Origin: a virus
Lineage: Duplodnaviria; Heunggongvirae; Uroviricota; Caudoviricetes
IMG/VR virus record: IMGVR_UViG_2579778804_000007
Coordinates: 1-34,195 of that record
Reading direction: 5' to 3' (one strand)
Length of the DNA: 34,195 bases
Shown: positions 1,668 to 26,877 of the stretch, one piece after another
How positions within the stretch are numbered: the stretch's first letter is position 1
Layout: each line of letters starts with the position of its first letter
Translations under genes and position numbers: made by a program
The notes under the pieces: model-generated
Seen by the model: only the letters and a program-made list of their open reading frames with translations
What the model was told of the DNA's origin: nothing
The model's database searches: none

Positions 1668-1700
1668 CGGGGGAATAAAAAAGGCCACATTGCGCGGCCT
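1668..1700 (-). terminator. Rho-independent terminator of the phage late (tail) operon
   Basis: On minus strand: AGGCC-gcgcaatgt-GGCCT hairpin followed by TTTTTTATT, just past the stop of the last tail gene at 1715. Confidence 0.4.
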
Positions 1701-3388: not shown

Positions 3389-3390
3389 GG

Positions 3391-4630: not shown

Positions 4631-4641
4631 GGTGCCTCCGG

Positions 4642-5238
4642 TCAGCCTGCGTGATGATCCGGCGAAGGGGATTCAGGCCAGACAATATCCGGCGCGTTGC
4701 CCGTGTCTGTCCGGCTCAGTAATACCCGGTATTTTTTCCACAGGGGAAGCAGGGCGCTTTCATCGTCGGTCGCCATATTTAAATCCACGGCATCCTGAAG
4801 GATGTTTATTGTATTTGTTGCCTCCTGTATTAATTTCCGTTTTTTATTCTCTGCCTCGCTTACCCGGTAAGCCTGTTCTGCCGCTTCATCCTTAACCCAT
4901 GATGAACCGTCCCAGCGGCAGAACTCCCCGTCCGGTTTTATCATGGTCACGTTTTCCGGTAACGGGCCCGGCTCAGTAATCAGTAAGGCGCTTCCCGACT
5001 CCAGACGCCAGACGGTTTTACCCCGGTGATCTTCCATGAGGTGCCAGGTGTTTTCATCCTCATCAAAGATAGCCACGTGTCCTTCAGGAATGTCAGGCGG
5101 GGCAATGTCCGTTGAGTGCGCAGGCAGTCCGGTATGCGGAGGGATCCATGCATCGCCTTCGCCGATAAATTCATTTGTTCCGGCTGACAGGTTGTAGATT
5201 TTAATTGTCTGCGGGTGTTCGCTCATTTTAAAGGTCAT
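4642..5238 (-). CDS. Tail fibre assembly protein (Tfa / P2 gpG-like)
   Basis: 198 aa; C-terminal [18 protein letters not shown] motif typical of Tfa chaperones; directly after the tail fibre gene. Confidence 0.75.
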
Positions 5239-7280
5239 TATGCAAGCCTCACGATGTAGTTAAATGCGATGTTTTTAACGGTGTTTTCGGCATTACCGGT
5301 GGGGTTAATGGTCAGGCCGTGACCATGTGAACCCAGTGCGATCGTGTGGGCGTGTTCGCCAATGGCTACCGAATGTGTGTGCCCCGGAAGGTTTACTGTC
5401 AGGTTTGCTCCGGAACCCGGTCCGTATGCGGTCCAGTCGCCGCTGCCTTCCGGTGACGCGGTGGCGGTTCTCAGTGCTATGTTTGCAGAGCCTGAACCCG
5501 CGCTTCCTGTTGTTTTTGTGCCGTAATTGAAGGATGAGGTCGTTTTCGTGCCAAGGTTAGTGTTTGAGACGCTCCCCCCGTGGGTGTGGGATTTGATACC
5601 GTCCTGCTCCTGTGACAATACCGCACGACCGCTGGCGGGTTTCCCCTTGATTGTCCAGCCGCGCATATCCGGGATGCGACCGTTCGGATAGGCTTTTGCC
5701 AGCAGGGGGTATTGCGCTTTATCGAATGTCTGCCCCACCATGATGGCGTAACCGTCAGGCGGGGTGTCTGACGGCCACGGAAAAGGAATACCAGCCGGTA
5801 ATGCCTCAGTTGCAGGCAGTGCGCCGATGTCCTGTGGTGTGGGTTTGTTTTTATCCGTGTAAGTGCGGTACCAGATGGGTTTTCTTCCCCGATCCAGTAT
5901 CACCCCGGTAAATTGTGCCCGGTGTTCTTTTGTGGTCGGATCTGAATCTTCCAGCCCGGTGGTGATCCTGACTATTCCGCCGATGAGTTCGCCAAACACT
6001 TCAATCAGGCAGCCACCCAGGCAGATATCGCCATACCCCGTGTCAGTAAGCACGCTGTGCTGTGACAGTGAAATATTGGCCCTTAATACCCAGCTCCCCG
6101 TTCTGAATGCACCGCGCTCATTCAGCCATTCCACGAACTGTTCTGTTGTCCAGCGTTGCCCTGCTTTACCCACGTATCCGTCAGCATCATAAACCCGGGG
6201 AGCACCGATGTTGATAATAAACAATTCCTTGTTGGGGATGTCCTCACCATTGCGGTTTTTCGCAAGCCGACCATCGGCGTTGTCCATGGCGATCTTTATA
6301 GCCTTTGGCGTGGCTGCCTGTGTCTCTGATGTACTGGTGGTGGCGCTGCTTAACTGTGTGAATCCCTTTTCTTTCAGTGTTGCGTCCGGGTGGTTGCGTG
6401 ACTTCTCGTGTTTTTTCAGAGCGTCCAGACTGCGGCGCTCCTCCGGGGTTCCTGTGGGACGAAGGTCGGTTACAGTGCCTTCTGCGTTGATGTCCGCAAG
6501 GGCTGTGACATAATGCTGAATACCGTTTTCCTGGTAATCTTTCAGCGAATCGGTCACCGTGATTTTGTGCTGAACCTCCCATTCACTGGTGAGCGTGCCG
6601 GTCCAGCATACATCCAGCCAGAGGCGGGCTGGACGGCGGGGGATACTGACGGGCTGGCTGACTGCCAGTTCGGCGCGTAAGCCCTGTACGTAGCCGTAAC
6701 CCTTATTCACCGTGTAGGTGTTGCCGCTTCTGGTGATCAGCCAGCCGTCACCGAAGAATGCAGCGTTACCGTAAATATCGATGTTTTCGCGGCGCTGGCG
6801 TTCGTCCATGGATGCCAGGCGTGCCGTGAAGTCTATCTGCCAGGTCTGCGCCGGGGTGGTGATACCTGTGGCTTCCTTCGCACCGCTGTACTCCATGAGC
6901 ATGGAACGGACCAGCACATTACCTTCGTTACCGTTGTGGGTTCTGATTTTTTTCTGTGTGGGGGCGTGAACAATCATGGCCAGCGTGCTGGTTGCTTTGC
7001 TGACCAGTCCCACCCAGTTAAATTCAAAATCACCCAGCTCTGCCCCCAGGGTGACCGAATAAACCACGGCATTCTCATTCACCACGCCGGTTTTACCAAC
7101 GGCCTGGCGGTGAACAATCTGATCTTCAGGCGGCAGGATTTCGTCGGGGGATACCGGTGTTTCCGGGTTGAGGTCCGGGACGTTTGCAAAAATAAACTCA
7201 TCCAGCACGACGGGGGTGCCTTCCGCCGCCTGCTGTGCCTTGAGCCGGATAAAGGCGCTGGTAATTACAGATTTCGCCAT
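5238..7280 (-). CDS. Tail fibre protein (P2 gpH-like), 680 aa
   Basis: Conserved fibre N-terminus ([40 protein letters not shown]), Gly/Ser/Thr-rich distal region with His-rich C-terminal repeats. Confidence 0.8.
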
Positions 7281-7302
7281 AAAGTCATACTCCTTCAGTC
7301 AT

Positions 7303-7866
7303 TCACTCTGCCCTGGCCGTCCAGCAGATATACTCCCCTTCGTATGCGCCATAATGGATGATGAAGGGGTTGAGGGTTTCCACTTCAAAACGGTAACGGC
7401 GGCATGTCCTGCCATATTTGCGGATGATCTCCAGAAGAAGATCGCTGTTGTCGGCTATCTGGCTGTCTGTCACCCGCACCAGGATCACATCCCAGTCCAC
7501 GCCGGGCTGGCGCTCGAGTAACTCCACGTAGCCGATGCCCAGCCGTTCAAAAATGGCGATAAAGCCCGCCACCTCGCCAGCCTCCTGTGCATTGATGAAG
7601 GCGTAACTGATGCGGCGGCGGTAGATCTCCGTGGGTTCCCCTTTAAAGCGGGTGATGTCCCGCTCCCATGCCAGCAAATCAAGTACAGGCTCTGCACATG
7701 TCATAGGGTCAAACTGACGTTGCGGCCAGGTGATCCATTCCCATACGCGGGACCAGAACGCCTGTGCGGCCCGCAGTAGTTTGTCGGGTTCCCCCCTGTC
7801 CATCCACGAGGGCAGTTTCAACGAGCGAAGCTGTTGCAAAAAATCACTCAATGACCACCTCCACAC
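7303..7866 (-). CDS. Baseplate/tail protein (P2 gpI / Mu gp48-like)
   Basis: 187 aa between baseplate J gene and fibre gene; family assignment from position and general resemblance. Confidence 0.5.
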   Translation of the reverse strand: MWRWSLSDFLQQLRSLKLPSWMDRGEPDKLLRAAQAFWSRVWEWITWPQRQFDPMTCAEPVLDLLAWERDITRFKGEPTEIYRRRISYAFINAQEAGEVAGFIAIFERLGIGYVELLERQPGVDWDVILVRVTDSQIADNSDLLLEIIRKYGRTCRRYRFEVETLNPFIIHYGAYEGEYICWTARAE

Positions 7867-9028
7867 TCAGGGATTCGAGCCGTGGCACGGCCAGATCGCT
7901 GATGATGTCCTCCAGTGAAAACTGAACCGATGCCACCACCGGGAAGGTCTGATGAATTTCCTTGCCCAGCGTGGAAAACGAAAAGCGCGAATAGGGCCAG
8001 ACTTTTTTCACATTAAAGCGGGCGTTCTCCCGAAAAGCGCAGCGTATCAGGTCGCTGATATCCTGTTTCAGCCCGTCCACGCCGTCAGGTGGCAGGGTGG
8101 TTGTGCTTCTGACGTACACGGTGACGTCCAGAGTGTGGCTCGTCTCCGGCATGGCAAAACACTGTAAATCATCCCCGTGTCCGTGATGGCCCTCCTCGCT
8201 GATGTAACGGTTTACGGCCTCAATGAAAGGGGCGGATGCCTCGCCGCTGTCCAGCAAGAGGTAGGCGTTGGCTGTTCCCGGTCCTCTCGGAGCGTCGTGT
8301 TTAAAGTAGATCCGGTCGATGCTCAGGCCTGCCACGCTGGCGATAAGTCCCCGGTAGACGGCGTCCGTGTGGTAACTGCTCACGAGGTTAAACTGGTTGC
8401 GTATTCTGTCGCGCAGTTCGTCGTCGCTTTCCTCATCGGCACCCGGTACGGTCAGCCAGTCTTCCCGGTTCACCACGGATGCAATGCCGGGAATGGCAAC
8501 GGGAAGGATACGGAAGTACCCCGGCGCGAGGTTGTGCCCGCTGCCTTCGGTGGTGGCTTCCACGGGAACGGATGCGCCGCTTTTACCGCTGCTGATAAGC
8601 GTTTCTTCCGTGACGGTCATGCTGTATATCACGCCGTTAATTCTGGAGGTCTGGACGATGGTGCCTTCGGGGATGAGGACGTCATCATTTGCCCTGGTTT
8701 TGGCAAACCAGATCACGCCACTGGCCTTACTGGCCGGTTTTGGGGTGATGTTGACGTCGTGCGCATGAAGCAGAAGAAGTGACCGGTCAGCCGTGGCGAC
8801 AAACATACCGGGCAGCACAACGTCAACCAGCGCATCACGCAGCCACTGAACGGGTCGTATGACAATGGTCAGAATGAGCCGCCAGAAGGGACTCATGGGC
8901 GAGGTGTTGGTGATGAGTCCGGTTTTCTGTACATCCTCATGAAAGAGGGTGGCGATCTCTTCTTCTGTTTCCGGCATACCGCTTTCACGGAATACCTGAT
9001 TAAAATCAACGTCCGGTTTCCCTTTCAT
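7844..9028 (-). CDS. Baseplate J-like protein (P2 gpJ / Mu gp47 family)
   Basis: 394 aa; size and position typical of baseplate wedge J proteins. Confidence 0.7.
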   Translation of the reverse strand: MKGKPDVDFNQVFRESGMPETEEEIATLFHEDVQKTGLITNTSPMSPFWRLILTIVIRPVQWLRDALVDVVLPGMFVATADRSLLLLHAHDVNITPKPASKASGVIWFAKTRANDDVLIPEGTIVQTSRINGVIYSMTVTEETLISSGKSGASVPVEATTEGSGHNLAPGYFRILPVAIPGIASVVNREDWLTVPGADEESDDELRDRIRNQFNLVSSYHTDAVYRGLIASVAGLSIDRIYFKHDAPRGPGTANAYLLLDSGEASAPFIEAVNRYISEEGHHGHGDDLQCFAMPETSHTLDVTVYVRSTTTLPPDGVDGLKQDISDLIRCAFRENARFNVKKVWPYSRFSFSTLGKEIHQTFPVVASVQFSLEDIISDLAVPRLESLSVEVVIE

Positions 9029-9356
9029 AGTTCACCCTGGTGTTTATGCGTCCAAAATCCTGTGTCTCTGCCGTCACATGCAGCCTGCCCGGTGCCTCTT
9101 CGTTAATGAACACCGTCCCCGGAACCAGCCGTTCATCATCCTCAACCAGGAGGATAAGCCGGGTAATGATGTCGCTGCGCAGCGTCGGGCTGCGTTCGCC
9201 GATAAGCAGGGCGGCGATCCCGCTTTCGATAATGCTGTGCACCACGTCCTGGCCGATGCTGACCCGGTTATCACATCGCTGTGGCTCGTTGCCGCTGTTC
9301 AGCGTAAAACTGCCGTCAGTGATAAGCAGGTCGATGTAAAGCGATGGCGTGTTCAT
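9006..9356 (-). CDS. Small baseplate assembly protein (gpW / Mu gp46-like), about 116 aa
   Basis: Start taken as the ATG overlapping the tape-measure stop (ATGA coupling); the track's longer ORF starts at 9377. Family assignment weak. Confidence 0.4.
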   Translation of the reverse strand: MNTPSLYIDLLITDGSFTLNSGNEPQRCDNRVSIGQDVVHSIIESGIAALLIGERSPTLRSDIITRLILLVEDDERLVPGTVFINEEAPGRLHVTAETQDFGRINTRVNYERETGR

Positions 9357-11539
9357 CCCGCGTAAAGCTCCGTCCATTCATCCAGTTGCCCCGGCGTCAT
9401 CGGGTTCTGCGTGTTGATTGTCAGATTGCCGAACGTCCGGCTGTTGTCGATACGGGTTGAGGTGTCCGTGCGTATCTGGTTGCGTATGCCTCCGGGTGGC
9501 AGCTCTGCGCTGATGCGGTTGCCTGCCAGTACCGGGACGGCGGTTTCTGCAATCTGCGGAGGTACGGTGCTGCCTGTTGCGCCCCGCGTCATGGTGTTCA
9601 CCTGCTCCGTGGGCTTCATGTCGATACTGATACCGGGGATTTTGTTCAGCTTTTCCGCAAGCCAGTTCCACGTCCGGTTAAACGAGTTTTTAATGACGTT
9701 CCATAAGTCCCCGAAGACGTTACCGATGATCCCCGCCATTTTCCGGAAGGATTCGACCGGGGCAGTCGGGTCAAATGCAGCCACCACGTCCTGCCACCCT
9801 CTGATGACGATGGCGAAGATGTCGACCAGGGTTCTGATCACGCTGATAACCACCTCCAGCGCGGGGGATATCAGGCTTACCGCTGCGGCCACCACGCGAC
9901 CGCATGTTTCCCCGGCACGGGTGACGCTGTTCATCTGTCCCGTGGTCAGCTGTACCGGTGCAAACAGATCGGAGAAGGCACTGAACAGTGTTTTTATGCC
10001 CTGCCATACCGGGGTCAGCGCACGGGCAATGTCGCCGAACGCGGCAGTCACCGGGCTCATGGCGTCCAGTGCGCTGGTAAAACCATCAATAAAGCCGCGA
10101 ATAAAGGCTTTGACGGGCTGCCAGAACTTAATGGCCACCACCACCAGTGCGGCGATGGCGGCGGCAACCAGGAGGACCGGGGCGCTCATGGTCAGAAACG
10201 ACACGCCCGCCAGACGCGCGGCAAGACTGGTGGCAATGATGACGCTGCGTACTTTTGTGAGTGCGAGCGTGTACAGACCCCAGGCTGCCCTGGCGCCCTT
10301 TATGATGGCCTTATGGCCTTCCATGATGAAGCTGAACACACCCAGCACGATGTTCGTGACCGCACCGGCTGCGCCCAGCGCCAGCATGGTCAGCGTGATG
10401 TAACCCAGCCAGCGGGCGATGTTCGGGAACATGTTCAGCCAGCGCACGAACGTCGCGCCGATATCGGCAAAACGGCCAGCCAGTGGTGCGAGAATGGGGT
10501 AGAGGGCGTTACCGATGGCGGCCCGGATGTTGTAGAAGGAGGCCACAAGGCGGTCCCACGGGTCGGTCATGGCTTCCGCCATTTCCGTGGCACGCTTCAT
10601 GCCGTCATTACGCCCCAGCGCTGATATGCTCCGGTTAAGCATTTCCTGCTGTCCCCAGAGTTTTTTAATCACGTCCGCGCCACTGCCGAAGGCGTCATCC
10701 AGCGCCTGTTGTGCCGCCACGTTACCCTCAATGTTCCTGCCGAACCTCGCCTGCAGACGGTCGAGGATGTCACCCATGGGTAAAATCTTCCCGGTGGCAT
10801 CGACGAAACTCATCCCCATTTTTTGTGCGGCAGCGGGGGCACTGCGCAGGAACTCCTCATAGATGCCTGATGCCTCGGTACCCATGGTCCGTGACAGGGT
10901 GCCCAGTATGGCAAACTGCTCTGCCATGCTGACGCCAAAATCCGCGCCCGCGTTTTTGGTGCCCTCAATAAGCTCCTGCATGGTGCTCATTTCCACGCCG
11001 AACTGCTGAACCATCCACGCGGTTTTACCTGCCAGATCTTCAGCAAACCCCACGGCACCCATGGCAGAAAACTCACTGCGGAAACGGGCACCCATGGCGG
11101 CAAGGTAGCCGCTCGCCTCTTCGCTGCTGACGCGGGCAGCCACGGCCAGGGTGCTGGTTGCTGCCGTCACACGGGGTAAATCCCCGTCGCTCAGTCCGTC
11201 CAGTGCGCCGCGAATATGCCATGCGGAACGGATGATCTCCGTGGAAGACTGACCGAATGCGGTCCCCAGTTTCATGGCCTGCGTGGTGAGGGCGGTCAGC
11301 GCCTGCGCCCCGACGCCTTTGGCCTCAAGCTCGCCCAGCGCCTTCTGCATCTCCCACGCCGGATCCATCGCGGCGCGGATACCTTCAGCCACGCCCCACA
11401 GTCCGGCCACACCCACACCGATACGCGCGAACGCGCCCTGCGAGCGTTCGGCGAATCCCGTCACGGATTCCTGAACCTGCCGCAGCGGGCGGGTAAGCTG
11501 GTCTGTCAGATTGATAATGAAATCCAGCTGGCTGGCCAT
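9353..11539 (-). CDS. Tail tape measure protein, 728 aa
   Basis: Long Ala/Gly-rich protein with central hydrophobic segments, directly after the frameshifted chaperone gene. Confidence 0.8.
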   Translation of the reverse strand: MASQLDFIINLTDQLTRPLRQVQESVTGFAERSQGAFARIGVGVAGLWGVAEGIRAAMDPAWEMQKALGELEAKGVGAQALTALTTQAMKLGTAFGQSSTEIIRSAWHIRGALDGLSDGDLPRVTAATSTLAVAARVSSEEASGYLAAMGARFRSEFSAMGAVGFAEDLAGKTAWMVQQFGVEMSTMQELIEGTKNAGADFGVSMAEQFAILGTLSRTMGTEASGIYEEFLRSAPAAAQKMGMSFVDATGKILPMGDILDRLQARFGRNIEGNVAAQQALDDAFGSGADVIKKLWGQQEMLNRSISALGRNDGMKRATEMAEAMTDPWDRLVASFYNIRAAIGNALYPILAPLAGRFADIGATFVRWLNMFPNIARWLGYITLTMLALGAAGAVTNIVLGVFSFIMEGHKAIIKGARAAWGLYTLALTKVRSVIIATSLAARLAGVSFLTMSAPVLLVAAAIAALVVVAIKFWQPVKAFIRGFIDGFTSALDAMSPVTAAFGDIARALTPVWQGIKTLFSAFSDLFAPVQLTTGQMNSVTRAGETCGRVVAAAVSLISPALEVVISVIRTLVDIFAIVIRGWQDVVAAFDPTAPVESFRKMAGIIGNVFGDLWNVIKNSFNRTWNWLAEKLNKIPGISIDMKPTEQVNTMTRGATGSTVPPQIAETAVPVLAGNRISAELPPGGIRNQIRTDTSTRIDNSRTFGNLTINTQNPMTPGQLDEWTELYAG

Positions 11540-11540: not shown

Positions 11541-11745
11541 TCACCTTCCGTTAAATGCGATCGCTATACCTTCAGCGGTCTTGTTGGCGCGGGTACGGGC
11601 AAAATATTCATCCAGCCAGATGGCCCGGGCGATGCTCTCTTCGTCGTCCGGCTCTCCGGGGAGGTAGTGACGCCGCAATGCCAGATACTGCTCAAGGGGA
11701 TTGCGGCGGATGCTTTCGACCCGCGCGGTCAGTTTTTTAACTCAA
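11541..11745 (-). CDS. E' extension of tail assembly chaperone, made by programmed -1 frameshift (E+E' product)
   Basis: Slippery heptamer A_AAA_AAC at 11738-11732 just before the E stop; the -1 frame stays open for 63 codons (KLTARVESIRRNPLEQYLALRRHYLPGEPDDEESIARAIWLDEYFARTRANKTAEGIAIAFNGR) and stops at TGA 11543-11541, two nt before the tape-measure ATG. Confidence 0.55.
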
Positions 11746-12004
11746 TCTCCAGTTTCGGGGAGTAAACCTCGTTAATCTTCTCGACGATCTGCATCTCACA
11801 GCCCGGATAACGCGCAATCAGGTCAGCCAGTGCGTCGCGGCTGGCAGGCGTCACGATGCGGTTAAGATAGGTGCTCATCGGCGCCACCTTGTTGGTCATC
11901 GTGATTTCGTTGATGAGGTTGTTAAATGCCGTCTTGTTCGGTTCAAAGCTCAGGGTTACGCCCGCAACGGACAGGATGATGGTGCCGGTGTTCTTCGTGG
12001 TCAT
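11729..12004 (-). CDS. Tail assembly chaperone (P2 gpE / lambda gpG analogue), 91 aa
   Basis: Small acidic protein immediately upstream of the tape measure gene, ending in a slippery site. Confidence 0.6.
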   Translation of the reverse strand: MTTKNTGTIILSVAGVTLSFEPNKTAFNNLINEITMTNKVAPMSTYLNRIVTPASRDALADLIARYPGCEMQIVEKINEVYSPKLEIELKN

Positions 12005-12294
12005 TGTAGTTTCTCCGTGTTTCGTATGGTTTCCACCAGGCTGTTATGCCTGGCGGCGCATTCGGTGTAGCGGCTCGTGAGGGTTCGCAGTGCCGCATCA
12101 AAATCAGCGCCTGTCGGGCCTGCCAGTCTCGGCAGTGTCTTCGGGCATTCCGTCAGCTGGTTTTCCTGCCAGGGTACGCTCAGCGGCTTCAGCACGGGCG
12201 TTGAACAGCCGGACGTAATCATCAGTAGCGCACACATTGCGGAATACCGGGCGGACGGTTTCCGTGTGAATAACGCGTTCAGTGTGAATTTCAT
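12001..12294 (-). CDS. Rz1-like outer-membrane spanin lipoprotein, overlapping the Rz gene in another frame
   Basis: Lipobox-like LLMITSGC; likely start at internal Met near 12237; reading frame begins inside the Rz gene and extends past it. Confidence 0.45.
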   Translation of the reverse strand: MKFTLNALFTRKPSARYSAMCALLMITSGCSTPVLKPLSVPWQENQLTECPKTLPRLAGPTGADFDAALRTLTSRYTECAARHNSLVETIRNTEKLQ

Positions 12295-12490
12295 TGCCCT
12301 TTAACGCCTCCAGCCGTTTTTCCAGTATGCGGGCGGACTGCTGCCCGGCTTCTGTCACCGCCCGTCGCGTGGCTTCCATGGCTTCCTGTTCGGCAAGCAC
12401 CACCCTGGCGTCATGCCAGTCATGGGCCAGCCAGCCCGCCCACATGGCGGCAAAGAGGATCACCAGGCAGCCCGCCAGCTGTTTCATCAT
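12104..12490 (-). CDS. Rz-like inner-membrane spanin
   Basis: 128 aa, N-terminal TM segment then charged coiled-coil-like region; follows the endolysin. Confidence 0.5.
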   Translation of the reverse strand: MMKQLAGCLVILFAAMWAGWLAHDWHDARVVLAEQEAMEATRRAVTEAGQQSARILEKRLEALKGNEIHTERVIHTETVRPVFRNVCATDDYVRLFNARAEAAERTLAGKPADGMPEDTAETGRPDRR

Positions 12491-12825
12491 TTCACCCCGT
12501 TGTGCTCAAGGCTGAAATGATTGCCGTCTGCCCGGCTGAAGCGCCCGCCCCATGTGCCGCCGATGGATTCCCAGTATTCCCCCAGCGGCCTGTAGGCGTC
12601 GGTGTCGGCCTGGTATTTGCCGTTAATAAACAGGTTGAAGTCCACCGCGAGGCGCAGGGTGTGAAGGCTGTTGCGGATGCCTTTTCCGGTTTTCGCATTC
12701 AGTGCTGCCTGCTCCGGCGTGCGGTATGCCTCGCCGAAGGTCAGGCGATAGCCGTGCTCCTGTGCCCAGTGGATGAGATCGGCAATCATGACGGCAAACA
12801 GTTGTTGTTTTTCGCTCAGATTCAT
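12487..12825 (-). CDS. Endolysin, peptidase M15 family (L-alanyl-D-glutamate peptidase type)
   Basis: 112 aa; motifs resemble small phage M15 endolysins; sits between holin and spanins. Confidence 0.65.
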   Translation of the reverse strand: MNLSEKQQLFAVMIADLIHWAQEHGYRLTFGEAYRTPEQAALNAKTGKGIRNSLHTLRLAVDFNLFINGKYQADTDAYRPLGEYWESIGGTWGGRFSRADGNHFSLEHNGVK

Positions 12826-12875
12826 GGGGTATCTCCTGTGCGTTATACAGGTTCAGGGAAGGTGAAATGTAAGGC

Positions 12876-13181
12876 TTATGGGTCATTTCTGCGTTCCTTC
12901 TGCTTCAGGTAGCGGTCTGCCAGACGGCAAAAGCATTCTTCAATAAAGGCGCTGCCCATAATGCCCAGCGCGCACGCCAGACCGACCACAACCAGTTCCG
13001 GCATGTCCGGAAATTTAAACAGCGGAATGGCGGCAACCGGCGCCACGGCAGAGCCCATAATCATTCGCCCGATAAGCAGACGGGCTGTGATGCGATCGCG
13101 GCTCACCATGAGACGCCCCAGCCCGATGGCGGCACCGATGATAATCAGTTTTGCCAGGAGTGAAGTCTGACCGTCCGGCAT
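12876..13181 (-). CDS. Holin (predicted three TM helices)
   Basis: 101 aa with three hydrophobic segments and charged C-terminus, immediately upstream of the endolysin. Confidence 0.5.
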   Translation of the reverse strand: MPDGQTSLLAKLIIIGAAIGLGRLMVSRDRITARLLIGRMIMGSAVAPVAAIPLFKFPDMPELVVVGLACALGIMGSAFIEECFCRLADRYLKQKERRNDP

Positions 13182-13185
13182 GGCA

Positions 13186-13677
13186 TCACCCCTTCAGATC
13201 GCGGGTGTCACGGGCTGACAGGTAGGGCACGCCGTCAATGCTGATAAAGTCCGGGCTTGTGACCATGAACTTGATTTTTTTCGTGGTCTTTCCGGCTTCG
13301 CCTGCGCTGATGTTCACCACGTCCGACAACATGGGGACGCAGCCGAATACCTCGATTTTTTCCTCCTCGCTGCCGTTGTTGGCATAAAAGAGAAAATCCT
13401 TTTCAGGAATGGCACGCCACGACCCCGCAGAGCGGGCCACGGCACCAAACTTTTTAAAGTTCTGCGCGTCGACTTCCACCTCCACATCGGCAGAAACAGA
13501 ACCACGGGTGTAGCCGTTCGGCACGCCGCGCGTCTGTGCCACGGCGCTGTTGTCGGTGATGGTGACGGTGGCGCTTTCCACGTGGATCATGATCCCGTCG
13601 TAGTTGATATCAAACGCGCCGCCGCTGATACGTTCATTTCCGGCCATGTCAGATCTCCAGTGCTGTGTCGAGTTCAA
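13186..13677 (-). CDS. Contractile tail tube protein
   Basis: 163 aa directly after the putative sheath gene; size and position fit a tail tube. Family not verified. Confidence 0.5.
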   Translation of the reverse strand: MNSTQHWRSDMAGNERISGGAFDINYDGIMIHVESATVTITDNSAVAQTRGVPNGYTRGSVSADVEVEVDAQNFKKFGAVARSAGSWRAIPEKDFLFYANNGSEEEKIEVFGCVPMLSDVVNISAGEAGKTTKKIKFMVTSPDFISIDGVPYLSARDTRDLKG

Positions 13678-14794
13678 TACTTACGCCAATGGCTTTTGCG
13701 CTCTCGTAGGGGCGTACCACAATGTAAATCTGCACGTGTGTACTGCTGGTCCAGACGATGGTGATATCCCCGTCCTGTGGCGGTTTAACCTCGCCGGGGA
13801 ACGGTACGCCGTTAATCTCCGTGGCGAGCGCCATTTCACGCAGCGTGCGGCTGAAATATGTCTGGCTGGCGGCAATGCTGCCCGGTGTGCTGTTGAGTGC
13901 GCGATCTGCAAGGCGGGCAATGGCGCGCAGACGTACACGGCGGGAGACTTTATCCACCACGCGCACGTTTTCGATGACCTGGTAATCGCCCCCCTCCACA
14001 TCAAGGGTGCGTCCGTCTGACCAGTAGAGCCCGTCGAAATCGTGATACCACATGGGCACGCTGAAGCGTTTGCCTTCCAGCGAGCGCAGCGTGGCCAGTT
14101 CAAGGGGCTGTTTCTTGCCGTCCTGCGGGATCTCATCGTTACCCATCGCCACCAGGGCACCGGTTGCCACACGTGCCGGACTGTCCGCAACGGTGACGGA
14201 AGGATTACAGAGACGGCCCGCCAGTACGCCGGGCTCATTTCCCCATAAGCGGGGAACCACCATCACGCCAGGTGCTGCCACGCCGTCCTGTATGGCACTG
14301 ATGCGGGTGACGTATGCCGCCCATGCTTCATCCCTGCCCGGTCCGGCCACGCACAGCATGAACCAGACAAAACGGCCATAAGCGGACTGAAGCAGGGCGC
14401 GGGTTTCGGTGGCGCGGTTAACGGCATCTTTAGCCGTGATGTCAATGGCAATCACCACGCCTTCGGCAGAAGCAATGGTCTGCGCTTTTTTCACCGCGTC
14501 CACCCATGCGGCGTTAGCGTCGCCGCCCTCCGGTGCCGGGGGTTTGGGTTCAGACAGAACGTGAACATAGGCAAACCAGTTCTGGCCACCGTTGGCGATT
14601 GCGGCGGTAAGCGTGGATTTAAGCAGGCTTTCATCCGGTCCCAGCACGTCGTCCAGGTCGGTCTCAGGGGAGACGGAAAGGGTGTTACCTGTGTTCTTTT
14701 TGCCATAGCCCACAAAAAGCAGCGTGCGCTCCACTTCACGGGTGGCACCGTTGAAACGGTTCTGATGGCTTACGGTTACATTCGGCCAGCTCAC
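13649..14794 (-). CDS. Contractile tail sheath protein
   Basis: 381 aa between tail completion genes and the tube gene; not P2 FI-like in sequence, so assigned by position and size. Confidence 0.5.
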   Translation of the reverse strand: MSWPNVTVSHQNRFNGATREVERTLLFVGYGKKNTGNTLSVSPETDLDDVLGPDESLLKSTLTAAIANGGQNWFAYVHVLSEPKPPAPEGGDANAAWVDAVKKAQTIASAEGVVIAIDITAKDAVNRATETRALLQSAYGRFVWFMLCVAGPGRDEAWAAYVTRISAIQDGVAAPGVMVVPRLWGNEPGVLAGRLCNPSVTVADSPARVATGALVAMGNDEIPQDGKKQPLELATLRSLEGKRFSVPMWYHDFDGLYWSDGRTLDVEGGDYQVIENVRVVDKVSRRVRLRAIARLADRALNSTPGSIAASQTYFSRTLREMALATEINGVPFPGEVKPPQDGDITIVWTSSTHVQIYIVVRPYESAKAIGVSIELDTALEI

Positions 14795-14805
14795 GGTGTG
14801 ACTCC

Positions 14806-15516
14806 TTATCTGATATCCTGTGCGTCAACGTCCAGGCCGTAGCCCATTGCGTTCATCTGGCGTGCCAGGATGTGTGAAAATTCTTCGTTTGTTACCCCCA
14901 GAAAGACGCGCGACGGAAGGGTAATGGTCCATGTCCGGGCCTTCTGCTGGCGTGGTCCGGCGATAATCTGATCTTCCATAATGGTGATCAGCAACCCGGC
15001 CTGCGCCCGCGAAAGCGTTAACAGGTATTTCATGGATGCTTTCCGCCAGCGCCCCTTCTGGCGTACCTTAAAGCCCAGCTCCCGCAGTCGTTTTGCCTGT
15101 CGGCGGGTGGCGGTCTGCCCGTTCTGGTCCTGACCGCTGAAGCTGTCAGCACTGACCCGGATTTCTGCGCCGTTGTGGTGAACCCAGCCCACGGCACCGG
15201 CACTGATGCGGCTCCTGCCACTGGTGTGATTGCCGTTACGGAAATAAACCTTTACGGCATCCTGTCCGGGCATCTCACGGACCGCCAGAAGACGCGGCAG
15301 CTTTCTGAACATTTTCCCTTTGCCGCGTTTCCGGGGGGCCCATGCTGTACCGTCCGGTGCGGCCTGATCGCGCTGATGGCGTCTGGCAGCGGCGATAATG
15401 CCGTGCCGGGCAATACGCCATAACAGGCGACGGCGTTTTTTCGGGGGCAGATCCAGCGACTGAAGCATCGCCTGCGCTTCTGCCAGCTGCTGCGGGTTCA
15501 GCTGGCCGCTTATCAT
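14806..15516 (-). CDS. Phage virion morphogenesis / tail completion protein (gpS-like)
   Basis: 236 aa basic protein following the gpR-like gene. Confidence 0.45.
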   Translation of the reverse strand: MISGQLNPQQLAEAQAMLQSLDLPPKKRRRLLWRIARHGIIAAARRHQRDQAAPDGTAWAPRKRGKGKMFRKLPRLLAVREMPGQDAVKVYFRNGNHTSGRSRISAGAVGWVHHNGAEIRVSADSFSGQDQNGQTATRRQAKRLRELGFKVRQKGRWRKASMKYLLTLSRAQAGLLITIMEDQIIAGPRQQKARTWTITLPSRVFLGVTNEEFSHILARQMNAMGYGLDVDAQDIR

Positions 15517-15986
15517 TCGCGGCTCCTGCTGACAAACAGATCCATGGTTTCCGCCGTCCAGATTTCAGGGTTAACCAGTGTCCAGCGTTTCCCCCTGTAC
15601 GGAACGGGGCCGTCCTCCTGCACCTGGATGATCAGCGGGTCAGCCAGTCCCACCGTGATATCGAGAAGGCACGAGTCCTCATCGTTAAACTGCGGGTCGA
15701 CGTTCACATCCTCCGGGCGGAATTCCTCCCTCAGCGGGTCCGCGTGCTCTTCCAGCCAGGCCATGACCAGCGCGTAAACCAGCCCCGGTGAGTATTTGCG
15801 GAACGGGAAGTTATCCCATGCAATCACGCCTGTGTACGTCATCACACCCATGCGGATCTGGTTGTTACCCAGCGCCTTCTGACTGCGGATAAGCTGCGCG
15901 TCTTCCTGACTGCTCATGAAGAACTGCATGGCGTCAGGCGGCAGATTTTCGGTAATGAAGGCGGTCAGGCTTTCCAGCTGGTTCAT
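15513..15986 (-). CDS. Tail completion protein (gpR-like)
   Basis: 157 aa, overlaps the head completion gene stop; P2-like position. Confidence 0.45.
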   Translation of the reverse strand: MNQLESLTAFITENLPPDAMQFFMSSQEDAQLIRSQKALGNNQIRMGVMTYTGVIAWDNFPFRKYSPGLVYALVMAWLEEHADPLREEFRPEDVNVDPQFNDEDSCLLDITVGLADPLIIQVQEDGPVPYRGKRWTLVNPEIWTAETMDLFVSRSRE

Positions 15987-16456
15987 ATGATGTGCACTCC
16001 CGCGCGTCTGTGCCCCAGCATGTTACGCATGACCAGCGAGGCTTCAGCCAGTAAGGTGGCGCGCGTGTCCTCGCTTTCCTGCCCCGGATAGGTTTCACGG
16101 CGACCAATGGTGGCGAACTCGCCCATAAGATCGGCCTTGGCACGGGCATAAACGGCCTTTTTGTACTGTGCGACCAGCTGGGTTTCATCGCCCAGCCTGG
16201 CCCCCGGTACGTCTGCGGCGCGTTCATGCCCCTGCGCCTTCCAGTGCGCCACAACCGGCGCAAGCGTGGTGTTCACCTCGGCCACTGCGGCAAGCAGCGC
16301 CATGGCCGCCGTGTCGTCGGGTAAATCAGCCGGAAGCGTGCGTGACCCCTGAAGCTCAGCCAGATCAAGGTCCGGCCAGAACGGCTCGCCGTTTGTCACC
16401 GTCTGCGGTGTGGATTTCAGCGGTTTACCGCTGACGCTGAAGCTCGGTTCGCTCAT
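15983..16456 (-). CDS. L: Head completion/stabilisation protein (P2 gpL-like)
   Basis: Start chosen at MSEPSF with GAGG 8 nt upstream (track ORF extends to 16507); follows the small terminase gene as in P2. Confidence 0.6.
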   Translation of the reverse strand: MSEPSFSVSGKPLKSTPQTVTNGEPFWPDLDLAELQGSRTLPADLPDDTAAMALLAAVAEVNTTLAPVVAHWKAQGHERAADVPGARLGDETQLVAQYKKAVYARAKADLMGEFATIGRRETYPGQESEDTRATLLAEASLVMRNMLGHRRAGVHII

Positions 16457-16563: not shown

Positions 16564-17262
16564 TTACGCTGCATTAAGGGCGCTGATGCGTGCCCTGATG
16601 CGCGCCCTGATACTTTTTACGCCAGCGGTACGGCTCAGTGCTGCCGCCTGTGCCAGGTATGCATCTGCCTTTTCCAGTACGGCAGTATCATTAATCGCGG
16701 TGGCTCTCGGTTTGCCCGCCTCGTCGCGCAGAAGATACAGCCCGGCAAATCTGAACCACTTCGCGCGGATTTCCTCATGCAGCCGCCACGAGGTGGTGAC
16801 GTTCCTGAAGGTGCGCGAAAAATACGGTTCTATGCTGTGTCCGGCCTCGCTGTTGTCGGTGGCCCACTGCAGCACCGTGTCTGCCACGAAGGCGGGCAGG
16901 GTGCTGCGGAAGTTGTCCGGTGTGGTCTGGCCTTCACTGATGGCAATGTCTGCCCAGTCAAGGGCGCGACTCAGGTCGCCCGTGTCGAACAGCCAGATGA
17001 TGCAGTACACCAGTACCGGGCAGGCGTGGCGCTTTCCGTCAGCGATATAGCGCTCCGCGACGGGCAGCCAGCGCGGCAGGAGAATGTCGCGCTTGAACGC
17101 CAGCCGCTCTTCGCGGACCGGAAGACTGCGCAGCCGTGCCACATCGCGATCAAGCTCCGCGCGTAACAGGTGGAAGCTGACCGGGGAGGCCGTCATCGCC
17201 TCCCGTCGTTCCAGTGCCTCCTGTGTGCGGATTTTCGCCCGGTGCCGCTGGCAGGGTGTCAT
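16564..17262 (-). CDS. M: Terminase small (endonuclease) subunit (P2 gpM-like)
   Basis: Start chosen at MTPCQ with GGAGGG ribosome-binding site (track ORF extends to 17418); follows the capsid gene; C-terminal RARI repeats come from GCCCTGATGCG direct repeats. Confidence 0.7.
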   Translation of the reverse strand: MTPCQRHRAKIRTQEALERREAMTASPVSFHLLRAELDRDVARLRSLPVREERLAFKRDILLPRWLPVAERYIADGKRHACPVLVYCIIWLFDTGDLSRALDWADIAISEGQTTPDNFRSTLPAFVADTVLQWATDNSEAGHSIEPYFSRTFRNVTTSWRLHEEIRAKWFRFAGLYLLRDEAGKPRATAINDTAVLEKADAYLAQAAALSRTAGVKSIRARIRARISALNAA

Positions 17263-17279: not shown

Positions 17280-18299
17280 TCAGCCGCCGACGCCCGGTAC
17301 GGCTTCTGCGCCCTTGATGGTCAGTTTGTCGTAGGCCGCGTAAATTTCGTCGTGCTCCACGGCGTAACCTTCCATGCGCAGATAGTTGTTTTCGAAACGC
17401 TTGCGATCGTCGTTCCACTCTGCCCGGCGCTGACGGGTACCGCGCTGCGTGTAGATGTGAAGGTTCGCCAGCGTGGTGACAATCAGACGGCCTTCCGGCA
17501 TAAACGGCGGGGTGTATGCCGTCAGTCCGGCGATCTGGCGACCGATAAGCTGTGCGGCCACTTTTTCGGTGGGGGCGTCGATAGCGTTAAGCAACGTCAC
17601 CTTGTCCTGTGCCACAAGGTCGGGGGCTACCAGTACCACCAGATCCGGATGACCTCGATACGACTCATCAATGAGGGTGTGCACGAGATCTGCCACTGCC
17701 GCATCCAGCCCGATAAAGTCGCCACCCTTGCCCAGCGTCGGGCCTGCGTCCACGATCTGTTTTGTGCTTCGGGCTTTGACGATGGCATGCCAGCCGGTGT
17801 TGACGTCCTCGCCGTTTTTGTTGGTTACCGGGTCAGTATTTTCGGCCACGCTGGTACCGTTAAAGGCGATGCGCAGGATATCCAGCGCAATCTGTCTGTT
17901 AACGAAATTCTGAATGCGGTTAAAAAACTCGTTTTCACCGCCGGCGTTGGCCCAGGTCACCAGTGTGGTGTACAGGAGGTGGGCACCGGAATCGGTCTCA
18001 GCCAGCTTGTATTCATTCCCGGTGACACCCAGCGGAAGGGTGAAGCGGGCATCTTTTTTACGACCGGTGTGCAGACCCGGAGTGCCGGTGGTGACCACCT
18101 GGCCTGTCACCTGTTCAACATCCAGCACGTTCGGCAGTTTTGATAAAAACTCATCGGAGTGCATGATGGCGTCACGCAGCGCGGTCTCCTTCGGGTCAGA
18201 CAGCGCAAAATAGCGTGAGACATCGTCAGTTCCGTTTGCCGCGCCCAGCCCGGCTGCGTACTTGCGAAGCAGGGCTTCAGTTTTCTGGTTCAGTTGCAT
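17280..18299 (-). CDS. N: Major capsid protein (P2 gpN family)
   Basis: 339 aa; resembles P2 gpN; position between scaffold and small terminase. Confidence 0.85.
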   Translation of the reverse strand: MQLNQKTEALLRKYAAGLGAANGTDDVSRYFALSDPKETALRDAIMHSDEFLSKLPNVLDVEQVTGQVVTTGTPGLHTGRKKDARFTLPLGVTGNEYKLAETDSGAHLLYTTLVTWANAGGENEFFNRIQNFVNRQIALDILRIAFNGTSVAENTDPVTNKNGEDVNTGWHAIVKARSTKQIVDAGPTLGKGGDFIGLDAAVADLVHTLIDESYRGHPDLVVLVAPDLVAQDKVTLLNAIDAPTEKVAAQLIGRQIAGLTAYTPPFMPEGRLIVTTLANLHIYTQRGTRQRRAEWNDDRKRFENNYLRMEGYAVEHDEIYAAYDKLTIKGAEAVPGVGG

Positions 18300-18310: not shown

Positions 18311-19360
18311 TTAAACAAAGTCAAACGGTTTTTCGCTTTCTGCCGGCGCGCCTGCCGGGCGTGGCGTGATGCCGGTGGCTGACAGCTTCGTGGTCAGTTC
18401 ATCAAGTTTTTCGGCAATGGCTTTGATTTCTTCTTTGTCGGTATCGTCCCGGCGACGGGCGGCAAAGCGGCGGTAACGTTCGCCTTTTTCCGGTGTGATG
18501 GTGCTGAAGGCTTTGATGCTATCTTCCAGCTTCGCTTTTGCAGCGGTAAAGGCTTCGGCTTTAACCTCGTCTTCCGGGGCGGCTTTCACTTCTTCTGCCA
18601 GCTCTGCCACCTCTGCGGCGGCGTCGGCGATTTCGGCGGCGATTTCCGCGACTTCGGCTTTTGCTTCTTCCGGCGTGTCTGCTGTGCCCTCGCCAGCGGC
18701 AGCGGCGCTGCCGCCTTCCACCAGGGTGATCAGCTTTTCAAGCAGTGCTTTAATTTCGTCCATTTTTGCGTCCTCGCCTGTATCAGGCTTACTGGTGTCG
18801 GTGTTGTCGGTCTGTCCTGCGCTGAACAGGCGTTTCAGGAATGATTCAGGTTTACGGGGGGCCGGGGAGGCGTCCGGTGACAGGCTGCCCAGCGTGAACG
18901 CCTGGCAGTTCGCCCGCTGTGCCGTGTATTCCTCGTTGTTCAGGGTGAGGCGTATTTTTTCCGTCCCCAGACTGGCGGGGATATCCGTCACCGCCACGCC
19001 CATGAGATAGTCGCGTCCGCTTTTGGCAAAGTTCGGTATTAATTCGACTGATGTGAAGAGTTTTTGCCCCAGCCTGTTGGCTTCAATCAGGTACTGATTA
19101 GGGACCAGTCGCGCGTAAAGACGGGTTTTACCGTCCTCGCCGGTTTCCACTTTCAGCGCGTCCACTTCGCCCAGATTGAAGGTGTGCTGGCGGTAACTGG
19201 TGTCGCCCTCATGGCAGGGCCACAGCATCGCCGTGTAGGTGTTGCGGGAATAGGTTTCAGCGGCATCAATCAGCCACTGCGGATCAATTTCGCGACCGTC
19301 AGCGGTCGGCCCTGATGTGGCGATGCATGTCCAGTCGGTCATCAATGTTGGCTGCGGCAT
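18311..19360 (-). CDS. O: Capsid scaffolding protein (P2 gpO family)
   Basis: ELIPNFAKSGRDYLMGVAVTDIPASLGTE matches the conserved gpO core; Ala/Glu-rich C-terminal coiled coil. Start set at second ATG with AAGAGG 5 nt upstream (track ORF extends to 19552). Confidence 0.8.
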   Translation of the reverse strand: MPQPTLMTDWTCIATSGPTADGREIDPQWLIDAAETYSRNTYTAMLWPCHEGDTSYRQHTFNLGEVDALKVETGEDGKTRLYARLVPNQYLIEANRLGQKLFTSVELIPNFAKSGRDYLMGVAVTDIPASLGTEKIRLTLNNEEYTAQRANCQAFTLGSLSPDASPAPRKPESFLKRLFSAGQTDNTDTSKPDTGEDAKMDEIKALLEKLITLVEGGSAAAAGEGTADTPEEAKAEVAEIAAEIADAAAEVAELAEEVKAAPEDEVKAEAFTAAKAKLEDSIKAFSTITPEKGERYRRFAARRRDDTDKEEIKAIAEKLDELTTKLSATGITPRPAGAPAESEKPFDFV

Positions 19361-19526
19361 CATGGCCTCTTTTACGTGAAAATCTGAAGAACTCCGGTGA
19401 GTGTCGGGATTTTTACAGCGGGGGGCTACTGGCTGAATTCGGCTGTCTTCGGATAACACGGGATAGCCGAACACAGCCGAAATTTTCTGCCTGAATGCGG
19501 GCCGGATGCGCCGCCATAATGGGCGC
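19361..19526. promoter_or_regulatory. Divergent late promoter region between scaffold (minus) and terminase (plus) operons; contains dyad TTCGGCTGT...ACAGCCGAA and TGT-N10-ACA elements
   Basis: Intergenic space between divergent late operons, as at the P2 O/P promoters that Ogr activates; dyads seen directly. Confidence 0.4.
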
Positions 19527-21329
19527 ATGGCTAAATATTCTGACGAAATCAAAGAGGCGGCGCGATCGCTTTACCTGAAGCGGTGGCACCCCCGCGATAT
19601 TGCGGCGGAACTCGGTATTCCGCCGCGCACGGTTTACCACTGGTGTGATGTGGGGCAGTGGGCTACCCTGCTGCCCGCTGAATCCGTTGAGGACGTGATC
19701 GCCCGGCGTATTGATGTTCTGACCGGACGGGAGGGCAAGACAGAGTGTGAACTCGCCGAACTGCGTGAACTTATCGCGCAGCACGTGAAGATCATCGCCC
19801 AGAAAAACAAACATGCTGAAAGGATGGCGGAAATTGCCGCCACGCGTCCGGCAGTGTACGACGACGGTGTGGCGGCGACCAGCGGCGGGGGTGAAGGGAA
19901 AAAGCGGCGCTACCGGAAAAACGACGTTTCCGGGCTGACTGCTGAAATGCTGGATGAATGGGCGCGTAAAAATCTTTATGCCTATCAGCTGCACTGCCGC
20001 GAGAACCGGCACCGTGAGCGCCGTTTCATCCTCAAGAGCCGCCAGATAGGCATGACCTGGTATTTTGCATGGGAGGCGTTCGAAGATGCGGTGGTGACCG
20101 GTGATAACCAGATTTTCTTTTCTGCGTCACGGGTACAGGCGGAAATCTTTCGTGAATATATTATTGATTTCGCCCAGCAGTTCGGGATCACGCTCACGGG
20201 TAAGCATATCCGTCTGAGCAATGGTGCAATGCTGCGCTTCCTGTCCACCAATGCCAGTACCGCCCAGGGATTTAACGGCCACCTTTACGGCGATGAGGTG
20301 TTCTGGATCCCAAAATTCACGCGACTGCATGAAGTGGCCTCGGCAATGGCGACCCACGACAAATACCGCACGACGTACTTTTCCACACCCAGCGCCAAAA
20401 CCCACCAGGCTTATCTGGTCTGGAACGGTGACGACTGGCGCGGGGATGACCCGACGCGTCGTGCTGTTGAGTTTCCGAAAGAAAGCGCGATGCGTGTGGG
20501 CTGTGAATGCCCTGACGGGATCTGGCGCTACATTATCCGGCTGGAAGAGGCGGTGGCGGGTGGCCTGTCTGCACGGGTTGATATTGAACGTATCAGGAAC
20601 CTCTACAACCCGACCACCTATGCGATGCTGTACGGCTGCGAGTTTGTTGACAGCAAGGATGCGGTATTTAAGTTCTCCGAACTGGTCAGGTGCGAGGTGG
20701 AGATGGAGACGTGGGGTGACTACGATCCCACGGCGGCACGTCCGTTCGGCAATCGTGAGGTGTGGGCGGGCTTTGACCCGTCAAGGTCCGGGGATAATTC
20801 CACGTTTGTGATTGTGGCTCCGCCTGTCCATGAAGGCGAGCGGTTCCGTGTGCTCGCCGTCTGGCAGTGGCAGGGATTTAACTTCACCTGGCAGGCCGAT
20901 CAGATCCGCGAACTGATGCAGCGCTTTAACATTACCTATATCGGCATAGATATCACCGGTATCGGGAAAGGGGTGTTTGATATCGTCAGTCGCTTTGCGC
21001 CACGTGAGGCTAACGCCATTCTTTACAGCGTGGAGAGCAAAAACCGCCTGGTGATGAAAATGATAGACGTGGTGGCCCATAAGCGTATCGAGTGGGCGAA
21101 AGACGCCATTGATGAGGCCAGCCGTGAACGCACGGAGATCCCCGCGTCGTTCATGTCCATACGCCGCACCACCACAAAAAGCGGTAACGCGCTGACGTTC
21201 GTGGCGGAACGGTCGGATGTTACGGGGCATGCGGATGTGTTTTTTGCCATTTCGCACGCCGTGATTAATGAGCCTGTAGATTATGACTATGAACGCCCGT
21301 CCACATGGGCCTTCGGGAAAGCCGCATGA
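19506..21329 (+). CDS. P: Terminase large (ATPase) subunit (P2 gpP-like)
   Basis: 607 aa; terminase-like ATPase region; divergent from O and followed by portal with ATGA overlap. Alternative start at 19527. Confidence 0.85.
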   Translation: MRRHNGRMAKYSDEIKEAARSLYLKRWHPRDIAAELGIPPRTVYHWCDVGQWATLLPAESVEDVIARRIDVLTGREGKTECELAELRELIAQHVKIIAQKNKHAERMAEIAATRPAVYDDGVAATSGGGEGKKRRYRKNDVSGLTAEMLDEWARKNLYAYQLHCRENRHRERRFILKSRQIGMTWYFAWEAFEDAVVTGDNQIFFSASRVQAEIFREYIIDFAQQFGITLTGKHIRLSNGAMLRFLSTNASTAQGFNGHLYGDEVFWIPKFTRLHEVASAMATHDKYRTTYFSTPSAKTHQAYLVWNGDDWRGDDPTRRAVEFPKESAMRVGCECPDGIWRYIIRLEEAVAGGLSARVDIERIRNLYNPTTYAMLYGCEFVDSKDAVFKFSELVRCEVEMETWGDYDPTAARPFGNREVWAGFDPSRSGDNSTFVIVAPPVHEGERFRVLAVWQWQGFNFTWQADQIRELMQRFNITYIGIDITGIGKGVFDIVSRFAPREANAILYSVESKNRLVMKMIDVVAHKRIEWAKDAIDEASRERTEIPASFMSIRRTTTKSGNALTFVAERSDVTGHADVFFAISHAVINEPVDYDYERPSTWAFGKAA

Positions 21330-26838: not shown

Positions 26839-26877
26839 GACGTGGCCTCGTGTATAGTAAGTTTTGAAAACTCACCA

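Follow-up and report, generated by a model that had tools for sequence, protein, structure and literature searches.

An HP1-type tail and lysis module in an Escherichia coli prophage of the Peduoviridae

Introduction

The HP1-like group has as its founding member Haemophilus phage HP1, whose sequence was determined by Esposito et al. in 1996 (cited in PMC2771037). The HP1-like viruses were defined in PMC2771037, where their tail genes are noted to differ from those of P2. A 2023 analysis described the split between the HP1 and P2 tail modules, reported HHpred as the only link between the two subgroups for sheath, tube and further tail proteins, and located lysis modules among the tail genes (PMC10612066). 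The HP1 late genes run orf20 (L)-orf21 (R)-orf22 (S)-orf23 (sheath)-orf24 (tube)-hol-lys-orf25 (Rz)-orf26 (chaperone)-orf27 (tape measure protein), and continue orf28-orf29-orf30-orf31 (fibre)-orf32-orf33-orf34-orf35, whereas the deposited record of P2 gives L-X-Y-K-lysA-lysB-lysC-R-S, then V-W-J-I-H-G, then FI-FII-E-E'-T-U-D. Here we analyse a stretch of viral DNA of 34,195 nucleotides (nt) (IMG/VR record IMGVR_UViG_2579778804_000007; 'the window' below means the whole of it), nearly all of which is one prophage; a full sister prophage lies between ytfP and ppa in Escherichia coli O22:H8 strain 154. A first-pass annotation, made from the letters of the sequence, had given the P2 order correctly and, measured against it, had described positions 11541–15986 of the window as a rearranged, mosaic tail module with a lysis cassette between the tail tube and the tail chaperone. 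We conclude, with a probability of about 93%, that the prophage is an HP1-type phage of the Peduoviridae resident in E. coli, and that its late module is instead the ordinary tail and lysis module of such a phage.

Results

The late genes form a single, compact minus-strand block of closely spaced ORFs that extends from about 19.4 kb down to 1.7 kb of the window, from the scaffold gene to that of a hub-like protein (Table 1). Their order is L-R-S-sheath-tube-[lysis]-chaperone-tape measure protein-DUF2590-J-I-fibre-Tfa-orf33-orf34-orf35 (hub), which is that of the HP1-like subgroup, and the P2-type (Peduovirus) layout of tail and lysis genes was not found among the open reading frames (ORFs) in the window. 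The succession from R/S through sheath, tube, holin, endolysin, Rz/Rz1 and chaperone E/E' to the tape measure gene lies where it had been placed, entirely on the minus strand, its outer limits falling where the R-like gene starts (15986) and where the -1 extension of the chaperone stops (11541); Pfam and PHROGs confirmed the order further downstream (baseplate, fibre, Tfa, two unknowns, hub). The same order is found in the deposited annotations of phages from nine Peduoviridae genera of the ICTV (the international body for virus taxonomy), namely SI7 (Irrigatiovirus), HP1 (Hpunavirus), phiO18P (Bielevirus), K139 (Longwoodvirus), phi3 (Phitrevirus), C5a (Catalunyavirus), F108 (Irtavirus), SMHB1 (Playavirus) and ESSI-2 (Seongnamvirus), the part from the fibre to the large baseplate protein being compared where a locus reaches that far. 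The module is thus not rearranged but collinear, gene for gene, with these phages, and an order that had been taken as unusual unless it proved to be the norm for a described genus is, by this synteny comparison, just such a norm.

The closest classified phages are SI7, SW3 and SW5 (Irrigatiovirus), which have exactly the window's gene order all the way from terminase to hub. Identities of the late proteins to those of SI7 range from 47 to 85%, the lysis proteins included (holin 69%, endolysin 84%, Rz 60%, Rz1 65%). The two differ in their early and immunity regions and in host (Salmonella for SI7, E. coli here), and the window brings additional cargo, namely hok/gef, C4/isrK and another set of methyltransferases. 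HP1 itself is more distant, at 27–59% protein identity, and its holin, endolysin (a lysozyme) and spanin are without detectable similarity to those of the window; HP1 gives its name to the Pfam families of the tube and orf34 proteins and shares with the window an A_AAA_AAC heptamer and -1 extension in the chaperone region. In the seven remaining genera (K139, phiO18P, phi3, C5a, F108, SMHB1 and ESSI-2) the lysis cassette again stands between tube and chaperone and the series sheath-tube...chaperone-tape measure protein-DUF2590-J is kept, while the content of the cassette varies (lysozyme, pesticin-like muramidase or M15 peptidase); of the seven, ESSI-2 alone has lysis proteins with clear homology to those of the window.

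A tblastn matrix of 25 window proteins against the HP1-like loci and P2 gave collinear homologues of R, S, sheath, tube, chaperone, extension, tape measure protein, DUF2590 and J in the HP1-like phages, those of the gpR-like protein being present in all nine loci. No P2 match was obtained by tblastn for the R-like, sheath, tube, chaperone, DUF2590, J, I and hub proteins; the tail proteins that did match P2 were S (37% identity over 34% of its length), the tape measure protein and pieces of the fibre and Tfa, and P2 FI, FII, E, W, J, I, U and D had no tblastn match to the window proteins. P2 nevertheless shares with the window the divergent Q-P/O-N-M-L head module, R/S at profile level, a gpY-type holin, overlapped lysB/lysC-type spanins, an E/E'-type frameshifted chaperone ahead of the tape measure gene, and Ogr, gpA and Cox, and differs in having X-Y-K-lysA-lysB-lysC between L and R and its baseplate and fibre genes before sheath and tube. 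The tblastn matrix and Pfam together bear out the first-pass view that the head, replication and control genes are P2-like and the tail is not. One explanation for this pattern would be a recent event in this element, in which the tail region of a P2-like phage was rearranged or replaced by recombination. It would fit with head genes Q, P, O, N, M and L that match P2 at 29–41% identity beside tail genes that mostly do not, with a holin that resembles P2 gpY (41%), unlike the tail genes around it, and with the departure of the gene order from that of P2. However, the order is collinear with nine genera, HP1 included, and the head genes too are closer to the HP1-like phages than to P2 (for portal and terminase, 47–78% as against 33–41%, the portal being at 33%), which places the whole genome, and not the tail alone, in the HP1 subgroup. 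As any exchange of modules would also be ancient and lineage-wide (PMC10612066), we consider a recent, element-specific replacement very improbable.

The head and control genes have the traits expected of an HP1-like phage. The head and connector module is of P2 type, with portal and large terminase genes divergent from those for scaffold, capsid, small terminase and gpL; the gpL adaptor matches Phage_GPL at 118.7 bits in Pfam, and the names given to the head genes of the sister prophage by the Prokaryotic Genome Annotation Pipeline (PGAP) agree with our assignments. Control and replication genes of the temperate P2 type are present, comprising the integrase, Cox (Phage_Cox 27.4 bits, just below the cut-off of 27.5), a gpA-type nickase (Phage_GPA 360.9 bits) and Ogr/Delta, and there is also a repressor-like gene in the window.

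Pfam matches for R, S, sheath, tube, holin, endolysin, chaperone and tape measure protein exceed the curated cut-offs, so the late ORFs are not chance ORFs, and families of the HP1-type tail are recognized above cut-off throughout (DUF2586, Phage_HP1_Orf24, Phage_TAC_10, DUF6890, DUF2590 and HP1_ORF34). Every functional label that the first-pass annotation had given from R/S to the tape measure protein holds by Pfam, PHROGs and fold. The gpS-like protein, which falls with Neck1/completion proteins in PHROGs, is longer than P2 gpS and resembles HP1 orf22. Sheath and tube had first been assigned mostly on position and size, and their Pfam names are a DUF and an HP1 ORF, so both were tested by fold. 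Neither protein has a sequence relative in the PDB; homologues were collected and aligned and both structures predicted. The predicted structure of the protein of 381 amino acids (aa) has the sheath fold, and that of the protein of about 150 aa encoded beside it has the tube/Hcp-type fold, and on these models the two assignments stand. The length of the tube protein had been taken as 163 aa, from a TTG start at 13677, and this did not hold. Its homologues are 149–153 aa long and the PGAP coding sequence (CDS) in a near-identical prophage is of 462 nt, which points to the ATG at 13647. This start, one base past the sheath stop, is almost certainly the one used, as judged from the sequence, giving most likely 153 aa; the 163-aa ORF (13186–13677) overlaps the sheath gene.

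The chaperone and its extension have the features of an E/E'-type frameshifted pair, and the first-pass label is well supported by the slippery heptamer and the -1 extension. The chaperone ORF ends ...GAG TTA AAA AAC TGA, in which the heptamer, a classic -1 slippery sequence, is correctly phased; from 11738 the -1 frame is uninterrupted as far as a TGA at 11541–11543, and this stop lies 1 nt ahead of the ATG of the tape measure gene. Chaperone homologues were found at the matching position in the HP1-like phages by tblastn, and the extension is conserved in the nine genera at 32–84% identity, a conservation at least equal to that of the chaperone. In all eight phages whose heptamer was checked, each from another genus (SI7, HP1, phiO18P, K139, C5a, F108, SMHB1 and ESSI-2), AAAAAAC or AAAAAAA occupies the same place as the last two sense codons of the chaperone gene and is followed by a -1 extension. 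Public annotation treats the extension as a separate small CDS (PGAP) or leaves it unannotated (HP1). The -1 frameshift itself is a prediction.

The genes between tube and chaperone have the makeup of a holin-endolysin-spanin cassette, with a predicted lytic function. The holin, whose gene starts 4 nt past the tube stop, has three hydrophobic segments and a charged C-terminus by inspection, and its similarity to P2 gpY extends over 70% of its length; tblastn gave no match to the holins of HP1, K139 and phiO18P. The endolysin, which has no signal sequence, carries the zinc-ligand motifs H-x6-D (H55..D62) and D-x-x-H (D100..H103), read from the sequence, and is 79% identical to that of ESSI-2; no tblastn match to it was found in HP1, K139 and phiO18P, which have other types of endolysin. 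The Rz-like i-spanin has no Pfam match. The Rz1 gene starts within Rz in another frame, an architecture like that of P2 lysB/lysC, and extends 103 nt beyond the Rz stop; its own stop overlaps the chaperone start (ATGA), and its Pfam match to LysC (19.5 bits) is below the cut-off of 27. Among the HP1-like loci and P2, homologues of the lysis proteins were found in SI7 and ESSI-2 only, apart from the match of the holin to P2 gpY. HP1, K139, phiO18P, C5a and SMHB1 have unrelated lysis genes in the same slot, with endolysins of lysozyme type in HP1 and K139 and a pesticin-like muramidase in C5a, and a DksA-like zinc-finger gene directly follows the tube gene in K139, phiO18P, phi3 and C5a.

Between holin and endolysin there is the remnant of a further gene. 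In E. coli 04-00955 a DNA-methyltransferase CDS of 753 nt occupies this position, and 11 of 12 near-identical E. coli prophages carry the methyltransferase there, so that their match to the window is in two pieces with some 690 extra bases. It has been deleted in the window and in strain O22:H8 154, and the stub that was left explains a spurious 87-aa ORF at 12623–12886. PhiO18P also has a methyltransferase between hol and lys, which shares only motifs with the one in the sister prophages (47% over 57 aa). Apart from this deletion scar, nothing specific would favour the notion that misassembly, a wrongly drawn prophage boundary or an insertion foreign to the phage had brought lysis and tail genes together. 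The same block occurs at about 99% identity in twelve independent complete genomes of E. coli, the cassette is bounded by a 4-nt gap on one side and an overlapping stop and start on the other, and the same slot holds lysis genes in nine genera, which together leave an artefact with next to no probability.

Among the homologues collected, an E. coli protein cluster matches the 381-aa protein at 99% identity. Of 5426 complete E. coli genomes, 12 contain the 8-kb core of the module, about 99% identical and chromosomal in every case. Megablast of the first 25 kb against phages gave short matches only, in the replication gene and the hok-like cargo; as the relatives were too divergent for this method, blastn was used in a 'distant' mode. 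Against phage genomes, the nearest DNA matches for positions 11541–15986 are then the Salmonella phages SI7, SW3 and SW5 (71.8% identity over 90%), followed at greater distance by ESSI-2-like phages, Yersinia vB_YenM_324, Aeromonas phiO18P, Vibrio K139 and kappa, and Haemophilus and Pasteurella phages. The ICTV criterion for a genus is a nucleotide similarity of at least 70% across the genome length. By our own VIRIDIC-like blastn calculation, an approximation and not the official tool, whole-genome similarity is about 40% to SI7 and about 3% to P2, which leaves the prophage outside Irrigatiovirus.

Another possibility is that the locus is a domesticated tailocin or defective tail cluster, in which the lysis cassette serves the release of tails as in R-type pyocin loci, and not part of a functional temperate phage. 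From its genes, the prophage would have a contractile tail of the myovirus type. The window, however, holds a complete head set (portal, large and small terminase, scaffold, capsid and L adaptor) together with gpA-type replication, Ogr, Cox, a repressor-like gene and an integrase; the late ORFs are all intact, and cultured phages have the same layout (SI7, HP1 and K139). A tailocin is therefore highly unlikely.

Further cargo was noted in the window. At one end there are two tandem 46-aa Hok/Gef-like toxin ORFs, 239–379 (-) and 712–852 (-), about 473 bp apart, which are assigned to the Hok/Gef family in the sister prophage; region 173–1010 has about 86% identity to 'MokW-like host killing' regions of Shiga toxin (Stx)-converting phages, and no Rfam match to a sok/hok RNA passed the threshold. 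Two RNAs scored above the Rfam gathering score, the C4 antisense RNA at 26895–26982 (-) with 76.8 bits and isrK at 27018–27092 (-) with 61.8 bits. Both lie within a 372-aa ORF (26529–27647) whose sub-threshold Phage_ASH match covers the same stretch, and which may be partly spurious. The pair suggests an antisense-RNA immunity or anti-repressor element of the P1/P4 type in the early operon of an HP1-like prophage; the segment is seemingly absent from the sister prophage of strain 154. The early region also encodes a DUF4406 protein (27666–28016), a D12-class (Dam-like) N6-adenine methyltransferase (28494–29474, -) and an Rv2179c-like 3'-5' exonuclease (29707–30297, -).

Table 1. Genes and sites of the prophage, in window coordinates; bit scores and E values refer to the families named.
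Feature	Position	Strand	Basis
Intrinsic-terminator-like hairpin and T-run	1682-1700	-	Consensus scan; 15 nt past last tail gene
Baseplate/hub-like, 557 aa	1715-3388	-	Weak matches; PGAP: hypothetical
HP1_ORF34	3391-3933	-	Pfam HP1_ORF34
HP1 orf33-like	3905-4630	-	Part of tail module 1715-9377
Tfa	4642-5238	-	Pfam Caudo_TAP; PHROGs
Fibre	5238-7280	-	Pfam Phage_tail_fib/Collar; PHROGs
I-like	7303-7851	-	Pfam Tail_P2_I; PHROGs
Baseplate J	7844-9028	-	Pfam Baseplate_J; PHROGs
DUF2590	9006-9356	-	Pfam DUF2590; PHROGs
Tape measure protein, 728 aa	9353-11539	-	PF10145 PhageMin_Tail 45 bits; phrog_28 5.3e-68
-1 extension, DUF6890, ~64 codons (E'/GT-like long chaperone)	11541-11738	-	PF21830 74.9 bits
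Slippery heptamer A_AAA_AAC, predicted -1 site	11732-11738	-	Last two sense codons of chaperone
Tail assembly chaperone, gpE/gpG analogue, 91 aa	11729-12004	-	PF10963 Phage_TAC_10 106.3 bits
Rz1/LysC-like o-spanin lipoprotein, 97-aa ORF, lipobox ITSG|C	12001-12294	-	phrog_2425 7.8e-22; phrog_456 1.6e-5
Rz-like i-spanin, 128 aa, N-terminal hydrophobic segment	12104-12490	-	phrog_1152 1.8e-30
Endolysin, small M15-family zinc peptidase, 112 aa	12487-12825	-	PF13539 Peptidase_M15_4 41 bits; phrog_1768/465
DNA methyltransferase remnant, first 52 nt, giving MTHKPYISPSLNLYNAQ	12835-12886	-	Alignment with E. coli 04-00955
Holin, 101 aa	12876-13181	-	PF04550 Phage_holin_3_2 71 bits; phrog_175 5.7e-31
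Tail tube, 153 aa from ATG 13647	13186-13647	-	Phage_HP1_Orf24 173.5 bits; PHROG tail protein 6e-67
Contractile tail sheath, 381 aa	13649-14794	-	Pfam DUF2586 430.8 bits; PHROG tail sheath 1.7e-146
gpS-like tail completion/virion morphogenesis, 236 aa	14806-15516	-	PF05069 Phage_tail_S 29.6 bits (cut-off 24.3), residues 12-120; phrog_26 2.1e-30
gpR-like tail terminator/tail completion, 157 aa	15513-15986	-	PF06891 P2_Phage_GpR, E 1.7e-18, 67.5 bits; phrog_65 1.1e-24
gpL adaptor	15983-16456	-	tblastn: HP1, K139, phiO18P, SI7; weaker to P2
Small terminase	16564-17262	-	tblastn, as gpL
Capsid	17280-18299	-	tblastn, as gpL
Scaffold	18311-19360	-	tblastn, as gpL
Large terminase	19506-21329	+	tblastn, as gpL
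Portal	21305-22378	+	tblastn, as gpL
Ogr/Delta-type zinc-finger activator	22416-22679		Ogr_Delta 56.5 bits
Integrase ORF	33188-34195		Sister prophage annotated likewise

Discussion

As judged by these comparisons, the pairing of a deeply divergent tail with genes of P2 type for head, connector and replication is a property of the whole HP1 subgroup and not an event in this genome. The tail may be called mosaic, as the first-pass annotation had it, in a deep evolutionary sense; as a feature of this element the description fails, since the mosaicism is lineage-wide and already published for the subgroup, and nothing found here goes beyond that.

Beside the observed gene identities, folds and conserved order, we infer the following course for transcription, frameshifting and assembly. 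The late block would be read as one long transcript, or a few, switched on by the Ogr/Delta-type protein and ending at the hairpin that follows the last tail gene, which is a probable end of the late transcript. The boundaries of the lysis cassette leave no room for signals of its own, so that it would be co-transcribed with the tail genes; the lysis proteins would then be made together with the tail proteins and the timing of lysis set by the triggering of the holin, not by separate transcription. A -1 slip at the heptamer would yield a longer chaperone that ends just ahead of the tape measure gene, as with E/E' of P2 and G/GT of lambda. Because of the protein families concerned, the tube is expected to polymerize around the tape measure protein on the baseplate and the sheath around the tube, the R- and S-like proteins to cap the tail, and the L-like adaptor to connect it with the head. 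One TGT-N12-ACA sequence in the tube gene, 142 nt before its end, was considered as a lysis promoter and rejected: it is shared with SI7, the other genera lack it, and the coding sequence around it is conserved. A sigma-70 consensus scan was uninformative, with 5 sites as against 8.7 in shuffled controls. We note that the P/O divergent intergenic region (19361–19505) contains a perfect 9-bp inverted repeat, its arms TTCGGCTGT ... ACAGCCGAA about 26 nt apart, which could be a candidate site for the late activator.

Several observations weigh against reading the locus as an ordinary HP1-type module under late control. No promoter was identified, and no convincing internal terminator or promoter was found in the late block; P2-type Ogr sites (TGT-N12-ACA) numbered 8 as against 6.75 expected by chance, and the P/O intergenic region had none. 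For the sheath, the model is poor at residues 259–381 (predicted local distance difference test score, pLDDT, below 50), and the fold match comes from the N-terminal two-thirds. The hub assignment of the 557-aa protein is weak, with Phage_base_V at 18.6 bits against a cut-off of 23.8, phrog_196 at 1.9e-5, and Pvc8, a baseplate central spike protein and VgrG at E values of 0.1–0.8; its gene does close the tail operon past fibre and Tfa, a position typical of HP1 orf35. The prophage could also be defective in ways not visible here.

From the sequence comparison, the position of the lysis slot is conserved and its content exchanged between genera: it is fixed between tube and chaperone across at least nine genera, the genes within it are non-orthologous, and the methyltransferase and DksA-like accessory genes vary. 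Perhaps the slot is a conserved site of exchange and cargo in HP1-type tail operons, and the prophage at the same time an unclassified genus-level lineage of E. coli Peduoviridae; we put forward the two together tentatively, at somewhat less than even odds. For the second part taken by itself, the similarity values indicate that the prophage is probably an unclassified lineage of this rank and of a known kind.

The results are useful mainly as correct annotation. PGAP labels the sheath a 'DUF2586 domain-containing protein', the tube a 'phage protein' and the extension a 'DUF6890 family protein', and better names would be justified by the fold matches and the conserved slippery site. The tail and lysis module is mechanistically nothing new, while the lineage is rare in E. 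coli and may deserve taxonomic placement. For the family as a whole, P2 is unfit as the sole reference layout of the Peduoviridae, a large part of which normally has the HP1-type order.

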